From NCBI RefSeq assembly GCF_053078305.1, contig NZ_CP166879.1: a stretch of 64,000 nucleotides of DNA; one strand, written 5' to 3'. The stretch's first letter is position 1, and every line of letters begins with the position of its first letter. Positions 1,182-49,545 of the stretch are shown here, piece after piece. The translations under genes were made by a program, and so were the position numbers. Below the pieces are notes generated by a model, which saw nothing but the letters and a program-made list of their open reading frames with translations, was not told the origin of the DNA and did no database searches.

Positions 1182-3461
1182 ATGGATGACCAGTTAAAAC
1201 AAAGTGCACTTGATTTCCATGAATTTCCAGTTCCAGGGAAAATCCAGGTTTCTCCAACCAAGCCTCTGGCAACGCAGCGCGATCTGGCGCTGGCCTACTC
1301 ACCAGGCGTTGCCGCACCTTGTCTTGAAATCGAAAAAGACCCGTTAAAAGCCTACAAATATACCGCGCGCGGTAACCTGGTGGCGGTGATCTCTAACGGT
1401 ACGGCGGTGCTGGGGTTAGGCAACATTGGCGCGCTGGCAGGCAAACCGGTGATGGAAGGCAAGGGCGTTCTGTTTAAGAAATTCGCCGGGATTGATGTAT
1501 TTGACATTGAAGTTGACGAACTCGACCCGGACAAATTTATTGAAGTTGTCGCCGCGCTCGAACCAACCTTCGGCGGTATCAACCTCGAAGACATTAAAGC
1601 GCCAGAATGTTTCTATATTGAACAGAAACTGCGCGAGCGGATGAATATTCCGGTATTCCACGACGATCAGCACGGCACGGCAATTATCAGCACAGCCGCC
1701 ATCCTCAACGGCTTGCGCGTGGTGGAGAAAAACATCTCTGACGTGCGGATGGTGGTTTCCGGCGCGGGCGCCGCAGCAATCGCCTGTATGAACCTGCTGG
1801 TAGCGCTGGGTCTGCAAAAACATAACATCGTGGTTTGCGATTCAAAAGGCGTTATCTATCAGGGCCGTGAGCCAAACATGGCGGAAACCAAAGCCGCATA
1901 TGCGGTGGTGGATGACGGCAAACGTACCCTCGATGATGTGATTGAAGGCGCGGATATTTTCCTCGGCTGTTCCGGCCCGAAAGTGCTGACCCAGGAAATG
2001 GTGAAGAAAATGGCTCGTGCGCCAATGATCCTGGCGCTGGCGAACCCGGAACCGGAAATTCTGCCGCCGCTGGCGAAAGAAGTGCGTCCGGATGCCATCA
2101 TCTGCACCGGTCGTTCTGACTATCCAAACCAGGTGAACAACGTCCTGTGCTTCCCGTTCATCTTCCGTGGCGCGCTGGACGTTGGCGCAACCGCCATCAA
2201 CGAAGAGATGAAACTGGCGGCGGTACGCGCGATTGCAGAACTGGCCCATGCGGAACAGAGCGAAGTGGTGGCTTCAGCGTATGGCGATCAGGATCTGAGC
2301 TTTGGTCCGGAATACATCATTCCAAAACCGTTTGATCCGCGCTTGATCGTTAAGATCGCTCCTGCGGTCGCGAAAGCGGCGATGGAGTCGGGCGTGGCGA
2401 CGCGTCCGATTGCTGATTTCGACGTCTACATCGACAAGCTGACTGAGTTCGTTTACAAAACCAACCTGTTTATGAAGCCGATTTTCTCCCAGGCTCGCAA
2501 AGCGCCGAAGCGCGTAGTTCTGCCGGAAGGGGAAGAGGCGCGCGTTCTGCATGCCACTCAGGAACTGGTAACGCTGGGACTGGCGAAACCGATCCTTATC
2601 GGTCGTCCGAACGTGATCGAAATGCGCATTCAGAAACTGGGCTTGCAGATCAAAGCGGGCGTTGATTTTGAGATCGTCAATAACGAATCCGATCCGCGCT
2701 TTAAAGAGTACTGGACCGAATACTTCCAGATCATGAAGCGTCGCGGTGTCACTCAGGAACAGGCGCAGCGTGCGCTGATCAGTAACCCGACAGTGATCGG
2801 CGCGATCATGGTTCAGCGTGGGGAAGCCGATGCAATGATCTGCGGTACGGTGGGCGATTATCATGAACATTTTAGCGTGGTGAAAAATGTCTTTGGTTAT
2901 CGCGATGGCGTTCACACCGCAGGTGCAATGAACGCGCTGCTGCTGCCGAGTGGTAACACCTTTATTGCCGATACCTACGTCAATGACGAACCAGACGCAG
3001 AAGAGCTGGCGGAGATCACCTTGATGGCGGCAGAAACTGTCCGTCGTTTTGGTATTGAGCCGCGCGTTGCTCTGTTGTCGCACTCCAACTTTGGTTCTTC
3101 TGACTGCCCGTCGTCGAGCAAAATGCGTCAGGCGCTGGAACTGGTCAGGGAACGTGCGCCAGAACTGATGATTGATGGTGAAATGCACGGCGATGCAGCG
3201 CTGGTGGAAGCGATTCGCAACGACCGTATGCCGGACAGCCCTTTGAAAGGTTCCGCCAATATTCTGGTAATGCCAAACATGGAAGCTGCCCGCATTAGTT
3301 ACAACTTACTGCGCGTTTCCAGCTCGGAAGGTGTGACTGTCGGTCCGGTGCTGATGGGCGTGGCGAAACCGGTTCACGTGTTAACGCCGATCGCATCGGT
3401 ACGTCGTATCGTCAACATGGTGGCGCTGGCCGTGGTTGAAGCGCAAACCCAACCGCTGTAA
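1182..3461 (+). CDS. maeB: NADP-dependent malic enzyme (malic enzyme domain fused to phosphotransacetylase-like domain)
   Basis: 759-aa ORF starting [22 protein letters not shown]; recognised as MaeB family. Confidence 0.97.
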
Positions 3462-3478
3462 TTCTTTTTTAACTCTCA

Positions 3479-3506
3479 CGCTTACCCTGAATATTCAGGG
3501 TAAGCG
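3479..3506. terminator. 28-bp perfect palindrome CGCTTACCCTGAAT|ATTCAGGGTAAGCG downstream of maeB; putative terminator or insulator hairpin
   Basis: Exact reverse-complement symmetry read from sequence; the T-run precedes rather than follows it, so not a canonical intrinsic terminator. Confidence 0.45.
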
Positions 3507-3507
3507 G

Positions 3508-3751
3508 TCCAGCTGCAATATATTAGTAAAGCTTATTACTGAGTTTACGAATAATAAAAAAAGCAATATAAAATATCTCGATATTATTTTATTTATATTC
3601 ATGCGTCGCATATGAAAGTTTATTCATAACAGTAAATATCTCTCCATTCTTAGTGATCTACCTCACCTTTTAAACGCGCTTGCCGAATTTTGTTATTTAC
3701 TCTGACGAAAAATTGTCACGATACACGAAAGTTTTTCACAGGCGGCGACTC
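3508..3751 (+). promoter_or_regulatory. AT-rich promoter and regulatory region of the eut operon (expected EutR-dependent promoter)
   Basis: 244-bp AT-rich non-coding stretch immediately upstream of the first eut gene; exact promoter elements not mapped. Confidence 0.4.
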
Positions 3752-44764: not shown

Positions 44765-45691
44765 ATGAATTATTCTTTAAAACAATTAAAGGTTTTCGTC
44801 ACAGTAGCGCAGGAGAAAAGTTTTAGTCGTGCAGGAGAGCGTATCGGCCTGAGCCAGTCGGCAGTGAGTCACAGTGTGAAGGAGCTGGAAAATCATACTG
44901 GTGTTCGCCTGCTGGACAGAACCACGCGTGAAGTGGTGCTTACAGATGCAGGGCAGCAGTTGGCTTTGCGTCTTGAGCGACTGCTGGATGAACTTAACAG
45001 CACGTTGCGCGATACCGGGCGTATGGGGCAACAACTGAGCGGAAAAGTTCGGGTCGCTGCCAGCCAGACCATTTCCGCGCATCTTATTCCGCAATGCATT
45101 GCTGAAAGCCATCGCCGCTATCCAGATATTCAGTTTGTCCTGCACGATCGTCCGCAGCAGTGGGTGATGGAAAGTATTCGCCAGGGAGATGTCGACTTTG
45201 GCATCGTCATCGATCCAGGCCCAGTGGGCGATCTGCAATGTGAAGCGATTCTTTCCGAGCCTTTCTTTCTGCTTTGCCATCGCGATAGCGCTTTGGCCGC
45301 GGAAGATTATGTACCCTGGCAGGCATTACAGGGAGCGAAATTGGTGTTGCAGGATTACGCGTCAGGCAGCCGACCGCTGATTGACGCAGCGCTGGCGCGC
45401 AATGGTATTCAGGCGAATATTGTGCAGGAGATTGGACATCCGGCGACGCTGTTCCCGATGGTAGCCGCAGGCATCGGCATCAGTATTCTTCCCGCACTGG
45501 CGCTACCATTGCCTGAAGGTAGCCCACTGGTGGTAAAGCGCATTACGCCGGTTGTTGAACGCCAGTTGATGCTGGTGCGCAGGAAGAACCGTTCACTTTC
45601 CACCGCCGCTGAAGCGTTATGGGACGTGGTACGAGACCAGGGCAATGCGCTAATGGCTGGGCGGGAAGGGGATCCGTTGTATCAGATATAG
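44765..45691 (+). CDS. yfeR: LysR-family transcriptional regulator
   Basis: 308 aa; N-terminal HTH ([38 protein letters not shown]); divergent from yfeH. Confidence 0.93.
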
Positions 45692-46023
45692 ATATCGATA
45701 TGAGTCGTATTTTCAACAGGATTTAGAAGGGATACATTCAGAGACAAACGCTGCTCTTTCTCCTGCGCCTTTTCTGCCTGCTGTCTCTGCAACTGCGCCA
45801 GTTGTGTTTCCAGTAGGGTGACTTGCTGTTGAATCAATTCGGCCTGTTTTTGCTTGTCTTCAGCACTGCCGCTAGTGTCTACAATCTCTTTAATTTGTTG
45901 AGTGAGTTTGATGATTTGCTGACTTATCCGCGCGATTTGTGAAGCAACATCGCTACCTTGTGATGCCCTGTTACTACTCTGTGTTTGTATGGAAGGAATT
46001 GAAGTTGAAGAGATAGTGGCCAT
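45682..46023 (-). CDS. FlxA-like small protein: Ser/Thr-rich N-terminus followed by Gln-rich predicted coiled coil
   Basis: 113-aa ORF with GAGGA 7 nt upstream of ATG; composition and the [12 protein letters not shown]...QLQRQQAEK segment resemble the FlxA family; family assignment from memory, not searched. Confidence 0.55.
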
Positions 46024-46112
46024 TGTTCAGTCCTCGTCACTGTACGAGGTAATATCGGTAGAAGAACAAGGAACTTGAGAAGAAAAATCAATCTTACAAA
46101 TCGCAGATAGCA

Positions 46113-46139
46113 AAAAAGCGCCTTTAGGGCGCTTTTTTA
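46113..46139 (-). terminator. intrinsic terminator of the valU-valX-valY-lysV tRNA operon
   Basis: AAAAAAGCGCC-TTTA-GGGCGCTTTTTT immediately 3' of lysV. Confidence 0.85.
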
Positions 46140-46142
46140 CAT

Positions 46143-46218
46143 TGGTGGGTCGTGCAGGATTCGAACCTGCGACCAATTGATTAAAAGTCAACTGCTCTAC
46201 CAACTGAGCTAACGACCC
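46143..46218 (-). tRNA. lysV: tRNA-Lys (anticodon UUU)
   Basis: Reverse complement reads GGGTCGTTAGCTCAGTTGGTAGAGCAGTTGACTTTTAATCAATTGGTCGCAGGTTCGAATCCTGCACGACCCACCA. Confidence 0.97.
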
Positions 46219-46222
46219 GAAG

Positions 46223-46298
46223 TGGTGGGTGATGACGGGATCGAACCGCCGACCCCCTCCTTGTAAGGGAGGTGCTCTCCCAGCTGAGCTAATCACCC
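46223..46298 (-). tRNA. valY: tRNA-Val (anticodon UAC)
   Basis: Reverse complement reads GGGTGATTAGCTCAGCTGGGAGAGCACCTCCCTTACAAGGAGGGGGTCGGCGGTTCGATCCCGTCATCACCCACCA. Confidence 0.97.
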
Positions 46299-46344
46299 AC
46301 TTCGGTACTTCACATTTTTACAAGAAATTTAGCTGGTGAGAAAG

Positions 46345-46420
46345 TGGTGGGTGATGACGGGATCGAACCGCCGACCCCCTCCTTGTAAGGGAGGTGCTCT
46401 CCCAGCTGAGCTAATCACCC
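46345..46420 (-). tRNA. valX: tRNA-Val (anticodon UAC)
   Basis: Identical 76-nt sequence to valY. Confidence 0.97.
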
Positions 46421-46464
46421 ACTTCTCAATTTCTTGCTACACGGCGGAGACTACATAAAGTAGT

Positions 46465-46540
46465 TGGTGGGTGATGACGGGATCGAACCGCCGACCCCCT
46501 CCTTGTAAGGGAGGTGCTCTCCCAGCTGAGCTAATCACCC
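46465..46540 (-). tRNA. valU: tRNA-Val (anticodon UAC)
   Basis: Identical 76-nt sequence to valY; first gene of the tRNA operon. Confidence 0.97.
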
Positions 46541-46557
46541 CCGCTGTGTGGAGTCGC

Positions 46558-46585
46558 ATTATAGGGAGAGTTCAAAATGAGTCAA
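46558..46585 (-). promoter_or_regulatory. sigma70 promoter of the valU tRNA operon (-35 TTGACT, 16-nt spacer, -10 TATAAT, GC-rich discriminator)
   Basis: Minus strand reads TTGACTCATTTTGAACTCTCCCTATAATGCGACTCC just upstream of valU; AT-rich UP/Fis-like region further upstream. Confidence 0.7.
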
Positions 46586-46798
46586 CGCATTTTCTAAAGA
46601 AATTGTTCGTTCGTCGTAAATTTAAGCAAGATGATCGCAAAACAGACTGTGTTGCGCAATTTGTCAACGAAAACAATAATGCGTAAGGTTGCAACCCGAA
46701 CTACATTGAGGAATCAGGCGGGAGTGATAGAATATCGCCCACTCAATTTTTCCAGGATTTGCCGGTTGTCGGCATCTTTCTAAACGTAAGGCCATTTC

Positions 46799-48214
46799 AT
46801 GAAAATCAAAACTCGCTTCGCGCCAAGCCCAACAGGCTATCTGCACGTTGGCGGCGCGCGTACTGCTCTTTACTCCTGGCTTTTTGCACGTAACCACGGC
46901 GGTGAGTTCGTGCTGCGTATTGAAGACACCGATCTTGAGCGTTCCACGCCGGAAGCTATCGAAGCCATTATGGATGGCATGAACTGGCTGAGCCTGGAGT
47001 GGGATGAAGGTCCGTACTACCAGACCAAACGTTTTGATCGCTACAACGCAGTGATCGATCAGATGCTGGAGGAGGGCACTGCTTATAAATGCTATTGCTC
47101 TAAAGAGCGCCTGGAAGCGCTGCGCGAAGAACAAATGGCGAAAGGTGAGAAGCCGCGTTATGACGGTCGCTGCCGCCACAGTCATGAGCATCACGCTGAT
47201 GATGAGCCGTGTGTCGTACGTTTTGCTAACCCGCAGGAAGGTTCTGTTGTTTTTGACGATCAGATCCGTGGTCCGATCGAGTTCAGCAACCAGGAGCTGG
47301 ATGATCTGATTATCCGCCGTACCGATGGTTCCCCAACCTATAACTTCTGTGTGGTTGTCGATGACTGGGATATGGAAATCACCCACGTTATCCGTGGCGA
47401 AGACCATATCAACAACACGCCACGCCAGATCAACATTCTTAAAGCCCTGAAAGCGCCGGTACCGGTTTACGCGCACGTTTCTATGATCAACGGCGATGAC
47501 GGCAAAAAACTGTCCAAACGTCACGGGGCAGTCAGCGTAATGCAGTATCGTGATGACGGTTATTTGCCAGAAGCACTGCTGAACTATCTGGTGCGTCTGG
47601 GCTGGTCCCACGGCGATCAGGAAATCTTCACTCGTGAAGAGATGATCAAATACTTCACTTTGAATGCCGTCAGCAAATCTGCCAGTGCGTTCAACACCGA
47701 CAAGTTGCTGTGGCTGAACCATCACTACATTAATGCGCTGCCGCCGGAGTATGTTGCTACTCACTTACAGTGGCACATTGAGCAGGAAAATATCGATACC
47801 CGTAACGGCCCGCAGCTGGCTGATCTGGTGAAACTGCTGGGCGAACGCTGCAAGACGCTGAAAGAGATGGCACAGAGCTGCCGTTATTTCTACGAAGATT
47901 TTGCTGAGTTCGATGCCGATGCCGCGAAAAAACATCTGCGTCCGGTAGCGCGTCAGCCGCTGGAAGTAGTTCGTGACAAACTGGCCGCGATTACTGACTG
48001 GACAGCTGAAAACGTTCATCACGCTATTCAGGCGACGGCGGATGAGCTGGAAGTGGGTATGGGTAAAGTTGGTATGCCGCTGCGTGTCGCCGTAACCGGT
48101 GCGGGGCAGTCTCCGGCACTGGATGTTACCGTTCACGCAATCGGTAAGACACGTAGCATTGAGCGTATCAACAAAGCGCTGGCCTTTATTGCTGAACGCG
48201 AAAACCAGCAGTAA
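46799..48214 (+). CDS. gltX: glutamyl-tRNA synthetase
   Basis: 471 aa; HIGH-type motif ([14 protein letters not shown]) and KMSKS-type motif (KLSKR). Confidence 0.98.
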
Positions 48215-49239: not shown

Positions 49240-49315
<76 letters not shown>

Positions 49316-49354
49316 AATTTTGCACCCAGCAAATTTGGTACGTAAACGCATCGT

Positions 49355-49430
<76 letters not shown>

Positions 49431-49469
49431 AATTTTGCACCCAGCAAATTTGGTACGTAAACGCATCGT

Positions 49470-49545
<76 letters not shown>

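Follow-up and report, generated by a model that had tools for sequence, protein, structure and literature searches.

The closest described relative of the gene considered here is flxA (b1566) of Escherichia coli K-12, a gene of the Qin cryptic prophage described in 1997. Within the family, dependence on FliA in vivo has been established for K-12 flxA only: FliA is bound there in ChIP, and the gene depends strictly on FliA, with an expression value of 280 that drops to 2 once fliA is deleted (PMC4183435); in a second study it was down 28-fold without fliA (PMC1935009). The closest described neighbourhood is the xap locus of K-12, which is involved in xanthosine catabolism and occupies exactly the same interval, from the yfeR stop codon to the lysV terminator region. 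The order of genes in MG1655 is lysV-xapR-xapB-xapA-yfeN-yfeR, as had been stated in an earlier interpretation of this DNA made without database searches (the sequence-only reading). In a pan-genome study, xapB and xapR were classified as accessory genes, found in about half of the phylogroup A and B1 isolates and absent in D and E (PMC9602453).

The window, by which the whole analysed stretch of 64,000 nucleotides is meant, carries a single small gene at this place. Its identity, its distribution, the putative promoter in front of it and its predicted product are described below and compared with the known systems.

The interval between yfeR and the tRNA operon

In silico analysis of the interval 45682-46142 revealed one plausible gene, the FlxA-like ORF on the minus strand (Table 1). 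Together with yfeR it makes up all the ORFs of gene length in the ORF list between gltX, which starts at 46799, and yfeH. The gene converges on yfeR, the two coding sequences overlapping by 10 bp at their 3' ends, and it shares the orientation of the tRNA operon, which it follows at a distance of about 120 bp. The intrinsic terminator of the operon is identical in K-12 and in other genera and stands immediately upstream of the promoter-like site of the FlxA-like gene. It was read by eye from the sequence, a simple terminator scan having missed it because its A/T tracts extend the stem. A terminator scan found no terminator 3' of the FlxA-like ORF; therefore transcription of either of the two convergent genes, the ORF and yfeR, must continue into the other one in antisense. 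Only the tRNAs were matched by Rfam in the window, with neither RtT nor any other family.

These features are largely those given by the sequence-only reading, in which the 113-aa ORF, the end of yfeR at 45691 and a GAGGA Shine-Dalgarno sequence were all named as they are now found. For the lysV terminator the hairpin itself is present, and its position was one base off (46113-46139 instead of 46112-46138). The product had been described as Ser/Thr-rich at the N-terminus with a Gln-rich coiled coil, which agrees with an N-terminus rich in Ser, Thr and Gln and a Gln-rich, helical core.

Table 1. Features of the yfeR-tRNA operon region, with positions in the window
Feature	Position	Strand	Basis
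yfeR, LysR-family regulator, left conserved flank of the polymorphic segment	44765-45691	plus	ORF list, annotations
FlxA-like CDS, 113 aa and stop, ATG start	45682-46023	minus	ORF list
Allele-specific segment, 396 bp, 43% G+C	45693-46088		BLAST breakpoints against K-12
Shine-Dalgarno GAGGA, 7 nt before the FlxA-like ATG	46031-46035	minus	read from sequence
Sigma-28 (FliA) promoter-like site, TCAAGTTC-N11-ACCGATAT-T	46051-46078	minus	pattern, PWM, conservation
-10 element of the sigma-28-like site	46052-46059	minus	
-35 element of the sigma-28-like site	46071-46078	minus	
Intrinsic terminator of the tRNA operon, A6-GCGCC-TTTAG-GGCGC-T6	46112-46138	minus	read from sequence
valU-valX-valY-lysV tRNA operon	46143-46540	minus	
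lysV, tRNA-Lys(UUU)	46143-46218	minus	ARAGORN, Rfam tRNA match
Three tRNA-Val(UAC)	46223-46298, 46345-46420, 46465-46540	minus	ARAGORN, Rfam
Sigma-70 promoter-like site of the tRNA operon, TTGACT-16-TATAAT	46585-46558	minus	

The proposed FlxA-like identity of the product is borne out by the Pfam FlxA model PF14282, which matches residues 15-92 at profile positions 4-82 of 101 with a score of 50.5 bits (gathering cut-off 26.3; E=2.4e-13). Among the NCBIfam models, none scored above its own cut-off for the 113-aa protein. Identity with K-12 FlxA amounts to 42% across 74 aa, and the C-terminal motif IDIY[IV] is common to both proteins. The match to the flxA PHROG is weak (E=1e-7), and a phage origin of the protein was considered and rejected, tblastn having given no match in 50,697 phage records. 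RefSeq already applies the name "FlxA-like family protein" to the gene product in O157 (WP_000201407.1) and in E. coli B REL606 (WP_000201405.1), two strains in which the order yfeR / FlxA-like ORF / lysV is identical; the name "FlxA-like" was not found in the literature searched. The exact sequence of 113 aa has no match in the protein collection, where an upstream-extended call of 159 aa is present instead. As an uncharacterised member of a family already known, the gene is of modest interest.

Orthologues of the gene are known in at least eight genera. The protein alignment, built from 17 orthologues and K-12 FlxA, contains sixteen invariant columns, including those in the central LAQLQ.QQAE block and in the C-terminal I..Y, and the ORF is intact in all alleles read, five from E. 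coli and twelve orthologues from other genera. Across genera, dN/dS is about 0.14-0.17 where dS is not saturated. Within E. coli it is about 0.55, on few changes that are mostly non-synonymous, and the O157 allele carries Q43H and D110G, both at nearly invariant positions of the family; the constraint may therefore be relaxed in E. coli. The same two observations would fit an ORF that were a decaying remnant or a chance ORF without function. Such an explanation is hardly credible, however, in view of the length, start codon, Shine-Dalgarno sequence, promoter motif and C-terminal motif kept in at least eight genera, the cross-genus dN/dS of about 0.15, the significant Pfam match and the intactness of every allele read. 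The sequence-only reading had allowed that FlxA similarity and conservation of the ORF in related genomes might both be missing; the Pfam match and the cross-genus orthologues contradict this.

Two alleles in E. coli and their relative age

BLAST homology to K-12 runs through yfeR (99.6% identity) to position 45692, 1 bp beyond the stop codon, and restarts at 46089, 11 bp upstream of the -35 element of the sigma-28-like site. The breaks at 45692/45693 and 46088/46089 therefore delimit the allele-specific segment of 396 bp. Its K-12 counterpart measures about 4.4 kb, carries xapR-xapB-xapA-yfeN, is unrelated to it in content and exists as two deeply diverged haplotypes. MG1655 could have shared the order of yfeR, small ORF and lysV seen in the window; it has the xap genes there.

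The FlxA-like segment was found in 1,316 of the 5,426 complete E. coli genomes and the xap-yfeN segment in 4,099, the xap segment being absent from 1,327. The sum of the first two counts is 5,415, so that practically every genome has one of the two alleles, and the two segments almost never co-occur in one genome. The whole yfeR-to-gltX arrangement of the window is present in one piece in 1,197 genomes. Strain HH97 was considered as an intermediate allele with FlxA-like and xapB fragments, and was rejected; its 1.2-kb interval, patched together from degenerate pieces and containing long stretches of poly-A, was judged unreliable. The locus represents a common and already annotated two-allele difference among strains, not a new element.

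The locus is without the signature of a mobile element. No integrase or recombinase ORF lies beside the tRNA operon or among the nearby ORFs of the ORF list, and the only direct or inverted repeats in 45400-46700 are the tRNA genes; on both points the sequence-only reading was right. In K-12, a second copy of the lysV 3' end and terminator is located about 140 bp downstream of the first and forms an RtT-type tandem unit. This copy lies on the tRNA side of xapR and is not an att site flanking an island, and a repeat of this RtT type is also present in some strains with the FlxA-like allele. The distribution, too, is other than the patchy and non-syntenic one of an island, the FlxA-like gene occupying the same position in at least eight genera.

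In at least six other genera, orthologues with 43-88% amino-acid identity to the window ORF are located directly downstream of lysV and convergent with yfeR. Orthologues in this slot were found in Pseudocitrobacter, Kluyvera (six species), Pluralibacter, Enterobacter hormaechei, Scandinavium and Lelliottia. Both gene ends were read at some of these loci: in Pseudocitrobacter, Enterobacter and Scandinavium the gene shares 10 bp with yfeR, in Lelliottia 4 bp. As regards yfeR itself, the E. coli gene is unexpectedly close to that of Pseudocitrobacter, with a dS of 0.73 against about 2.6 to Citrobacter.

Other arrangements of the interval include those with xap genes, yfeN or both kinds of content. 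Citrobacter freundii has the order yfeR-xapA-xapB-xapR-tRNAs, without the FlxA-like gene and without yfeN. Leclercia carries both contents, namely yfeR-xapA-xapB-xapR, then the FlxA-like gene and then the tRNAs, and a relative represented by a 2.1-kb contig (YfeR 90% identical) has yfeR, an overlapping FlxA-like gene and then yfeN. Judging from Leclercia and the yfeN-bearing relative, the FlxA-like gene would therefore have been in place before xap and yfeN came in, on one side of it or the other. Loss of this small gene then leaves the K-12 state.

The divergence of the individual genes points in the same direction. For the FlxA-like gene, the dS separating E. coli from P. faecalis is 0.55, compared with 0.73 for yfeR and 0.80 for gltX; the gene therefore shows no excess similarity between these species relative to its flanks. 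Among the E. coli FlxA-like alleles dS does not exceed 0.056. The xap haplotypes of K-12 and of a B2 strain (LF82) differ by a dS of 0.14 (xapR) up to 0.53 (yfeN), with 0.06 in the adjoining yfeR. Because of these measures the FlxA-like allele looks resident and the xap block imported, probably more than once. The FlxA-like arrangement also appears to be the older one, and xap the incoming one, because of the same-slot orthologues in other genera and the dN/dS of about 0.15. The sequence-only reading had offered two alternatives, an ancestral state lacking xap or a replacement; the synteny in at least six other genera and the dS comparison favour the first, that is, an old, syntenic arrangement in the Enterobacteriaceae. 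Retention of the FlxA-like gene since the Escherichia ancestor is a step that we infer, since C. freundii has xapABR only and the comparison covered E. coli and the genera named above.

On a Pseudocitrobacter metagenome contig, an E. coli-like copy of the gene (dS 0.10) is located between Pseudocitrobacter-like flanks, the yfeH of that contig being at a dS of 1.23 from E. coli; therefore the segment does move between genera. This inter-genus transfer of exactly the segment in question is one of four observations that would fit a recent, lineage-specific gain at a tRNA-linked hot spot, by which the segment took the place of an ancestral xap locus in part of the E. coli lineages; the others are (i) the low G+C content of the segment, 43% against 53% in the flanks; (ii) the C. 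freundii slot with xapABR and no FlxA-like gene; (iii) the greater nearness of yfeR to Pseudocitrobacter than to Citrobacter, which hints at an old exchange. We regard a recent gain as quite unlikely, given that there is no integrase and no att repeat, that the arrangement is common to six other genera, mostly with the 10-bp yfeR overlap, and that the diversity of the E. coli alleles (dS to 0.056) is of species age. The xap haplotypes, moreover, are far more divergent than their own flanks, and in dS to P. faecalis the gene is in line with the genes that flank it.

According to the favoured reading, in which the FlxA-like state is the old one, the gene would hold the ancestral position directly downstream of valU-valX-valY-lysV, converging on yfeR, and the yfeN-xapA-xapB-xapR block would have entered the interval and displaced it, giving the K-12 type. 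The alleles would most likely have been swapped among lineages by homologous recombination in the flanks (yfeR on one side, the tRNA operon-gltX side on the other), and such an exchange would not have involved a mobile element.

The sigma-28-like promoter site

Upstream of the FlxA-like gene, 28 nt before its ATG, the minus strand carries the motif TCAAGTTC-N11-ACCGATAT (46078-46052). The pattern TCAAG-N14-RCCGATA was found at one place in the 64 kb of the window, the number expected from shuffles being 0. A PWM was constructed from 16 FliA promoters bound in experiment, with flxA left out (Fitzgerald et al., PMC4183435). By this PWM the site scores 19.7 bits and is the top of 127,946 window positions, the next reaching 13.4 bits, and the validated flxA promoter scores 19.4 bits. 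The motif has been kept in 18 orthologous loci and in K-12 flxA with the following features: (i) the -35 sequence TCAAG, for which K-12 flxA has TAAAG; (ii) a spacer of 11 nt; (iii) the -10 sequence GCCGATA; (iv) a distance of 23-31 nt to the ATG. The sequences of the spacer and of the flanks have diverged freely among the 18 loci. A purine-rich Shine-Dalgarno sequence is found at a constant distance in all orthologues.

The -10 element of the window and of REL606 is ACCGATAT, not GCCGATAT, with A for G in the first position; O157 and the other alleles have G. The validated promoters of ycgR and fliD likewise have ACCGATA (PMC4183435). Having its own sigma-28 promoter motif, the FlxA-like gene should therefore be transcribed by FliA-RNA polymerase. 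It is most likely a FliA-dependent, class-3 (late) gene of the flagellar regulon, which the enzyme would transcribe in the same manner as the prophage paralogue flxA in K-12.

Alternatively, expression of the gene might depend mostly on transcription that reads through from the tRNA operon or on a sigma-70 promoter, with the sigma-28-like motif being non-functional. Its co-directional position about 120 bp downstream of the operon and the initial A of the -10 element in the window would be compatible with this. The explanation is nevertheless very unlikely, as a strong terminator separates lysV from the FlxA-like gene, no sigma-70-like site was found between the two, the register of the motif is invariant in 18 loci whose surroundings have diverged beyond alignment, and by the PWM the site scores as high as the validated flxA promoter. 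As for the 5' UTR, no consensus structure was obtained with RNAalifold from 14 leaders. A translational hairpin was considered and is not claimed: when leaders are folded singly, the Shine-Dalgarno sequence is often paired with a pyrimidine-rich arm (E. coli leader, -8.6 kcal/mol, z=-1.8), but overall these folds are no better than those of shuffles.

The best explanation of the whole, which we hold to be quite probable, is that the FlxA-like ORF is a genuine member of the FlxA family, chromosomal and passed on by vertical descent, driven by FliA as a class-3 gene and constituting the ancestral allele of the locus. The observation made by the sequence-only reading and its interpretation were correct; what it missed are the upstream sigma-28 motif, the exclusivity of the alleles and the existing RefSeq annotation in O157 and E. 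coli B.

The predicted product and its known counterparts

The AlphaFold model, based on the alignment of orthologues, has a mean pLDDT of 70 and of about 90 in the core. It predicts disordered residues 1-21, a helix at 22-49, a conserved SGSAE loop, a second helix at 54-99 and a disordered tail ending in IDIYI. The pLDDT of residues 1-22 is below 50, and the N-terminus is without a Sec signal. Foldseek against the PDB returned only generic helical hairpins with E above 0.3 (LSD1 tower, designed coiled coils, CdsO), and a profile search of the PDB sequences returned designed coiled coils only. In the 113-aa product, a helical-hairpin coiled coil would be preceded by a disordered N-terminus rich in Ser and Thr and followed by the conserved C-terminal IDIY[IV].

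K-12 FlxA has been detected with five peptides in the culture exoproteome, together with FlgK, FliD, FliC, FlgL, FlgM and FlgE, all of which are flagellar export substrates (PMC6391000). Flagellar secretion is inefficient at 42 C, and at this temperature the mRNA and the protein of K-12 FlxA shift in opposite directions (PMC6551532). Because of these data on K-12 FlxA, the sigma-28 motif and the disordered, signal-less N-terminus, the preferred mechanism is that the flagellar type III export apparatus may accept the product as a late, non-essential substrate, as it does FlgM. This mechanism is speculative, being drawn by analogy, and we consider it possible rather than probable.

About as likely as export is a cytoplasmic role, in which the protein would act as a small coiled-coil adaptor or regulator in the flagellar or motility programme; we see in it a serious possibility, somewhat short of an even chance. 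The helical hairpin is a generic protein-binding fold, flxA mutants are reported to be motile in the title of Ide and Kutsukake (1997, cited in PMC4183435), and the exoproteome that lists FlxA includes cytoplasmic proteins too, such as CheY and metabolic enzymes (PMC6391000). Against a cytoplasmic location speak the company of six flagellar-exported proteins in that exoproteome, the opposite course of FlxA mRNA and protein when secretion is impaired (PMC6551532) and the N-terminus, which is disordered and lacks a Sec signal. If the preferred export mechanism is extended to the family, FlxA proteins might be unrecognised FliA-controlled late flagellar export substrates with an extracellular or checkpoint role, and E. 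coli lineages would trade such a gene against xanthosine catabolism at a single recombining locus; this wider proposal is tentative and rather doubtful.

That the gene is annotated by RefSeq in O157 and E. coli B was already known. New here are the apparently older, syntenic state, the exclusivity of the alleles in E. coli and the deeply conserved motif of a putative sigma-28 promoter. These explain a difference between K-12 and B or O157 at a well-mapped locus: about a quarter of the sequenced E. coli are without the xanthosine genes and have a flagellar-regulon-type gene instead. The FlxA family is not only prophage cargo, and comprises a syntenic chromosomal lineage under purifying selection across the Enterobacteriaceae, with a conserved sigma-28 motif. 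The role of FlxA proteins is better approached through this lysV-linked lineage than through the Qin copy. In practical terms the consequences are modest.

Three known systems may be set beside the locus. The first is the tyrT-rtT/tpr arrangement, which we take to consist of small features downstream of a tRNA operon (compare the RefSeq "RtT sRNA" feature). The likeness lies in a short feature directly after the terminator of a tRNA operon. The window differs in having a single copy of the lysV 3' end, and the FlxA-like gene is conserved and protein-coding, with a promoter-like site of its own.

The second is FlgM, the anti-sigma-28 factor, to which the likeness is one of functional analogy only. 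Both proteins are of about 100 aa, with a sigma-28 promoter (a promoter-like site in the window) and a disordered N-terminus, and FlgM was detected in the same exoproteome as K-12 FlxA (PMC6391000). However, no sequence similarity between FlgM and the FlxA-like protein was found, and FlgM is largely unfolded, whereas a stable helical hairpin is predicted for the FlxA-like protein; a likeness in FliA binding is not implied.

The third and closest is K-12 FlxA, a protein of the same Pfam family with 110 aa compared to the 113 aa of the window protein. The two are alike in the coiled-coil core and the C-terminal IDIY[IV], and their genes are alike in the sigma-28 promoter motif, its 11-nt spacer and its short distance before the ATG. 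The major difference relates to the genomic setting: flxA of K-12 lies within a prophage, whereas the gene of the window is chromosomal, syntenic across genera and located beside a tRNA operon.

Convergent ends of the FlxA-like gene and yfeR

The coding ends of the FlxA-like gene (minus strand) and yfeR (plus strand) converge and overlap by 10 bp at window 45682-45691, where the E. coli sequence is TCAGATATAG. An overlap of equal length has been identified in the orthologous loci of Pseudocitrobacter, Enterobacter and Scandinavium. No terminator was found between the two genes. Since the ends overlap and no terminator intervenes, FlxA-like transcription driven by FliA (sigma-28) from the predicted promoter would enter yfeR in the antisense direction.

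Repeat unit and tRNA genes around lysV

An RtT-type unit of about 140-160 bp, the end of which is a second copy of the lysV 3' end and terminator, is located 3' of lysV, and its copy number differs between loci. The duplication is present in K-12, some E. coli with the FlxA-like allele, P. faecalis and several Kluyvera, and is absent from the window.

Location of the RtT-type unit in the comparison loci
Locus	Coordinates	Position
K-12 (L001)	3330-3539	
L022	1954-2079	
L005, L006, L008, L010		between lysV and the FlxA-like gene

Three tandem tRNA-Ala(GGC) genes are found at window 49240-49545; K-12, REL606 and HH97 have two, alaX and alaW, in the equivalent position. For LF82 (L025 6149-6224), the annotation lists a tRNA-Ala, not a tRNA-Val, in the middle of the valU-valX-valY-lysV operon. 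Downstream of gltX, O157 strain Al Ain (L002 6633-8101) carries an IS200/IS605 tnpA pseudogene and a TnpB/InsQ gene in place of the yfeD and yfeC of K-12; the window apparently resembles K-12 here.

Variant alleles and divergent haplotypes

The 1.2 kb that separate yfeR from lysV in strain HH97 (L003 7690-8906, NZ_CP116409.1) form a mosaic of degenerate FlxA-like pieces, a fragment of xapB and poly-A stretches 16-20 nt long. Either this is a decayed allele unique to the strain or the mosaic arose as an artefact of assembly. The FlxA-like allele of O157 strain Al Ain (L002 3983-4324) carries the substitutions Q43H and D110G at nearly invariant positions of the family alignment, the latter inside the C-terminal IDIYI motif.

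The FlxA-like gene on the uncultured Pseudocitrobacter MAG contig CAJYVI010000110.1 (L004 756-3111) is E. coli-like (dS 0.10), and the neighbouring yfeH is Pseudocitrobacter-like, with a dS of 0.35 to P. faecalis versus 1.23 to E. coli. This mix reflects either inter-genus transfer of a short FlxA-like segment or a chimeric assembly. The upstream tRNA cluster of the contig, Lys-Val-Lys-Lys-Lys, is also atypical.

The alternative occupant of the site, the xap-yfeN island (xapR to yfeN), exists as two deep haplotypes with about 93% nucleotide identity between K-12 and LF82. The dS between these strains climbs from 0.14 at xapR to 0.53 at yfeN, whereas in the adjoining yfeR it is only 0.06. This difference in sequence divergence suggests that the two haplotypes were imported separately or represent a balanced polymorphism of old standing.
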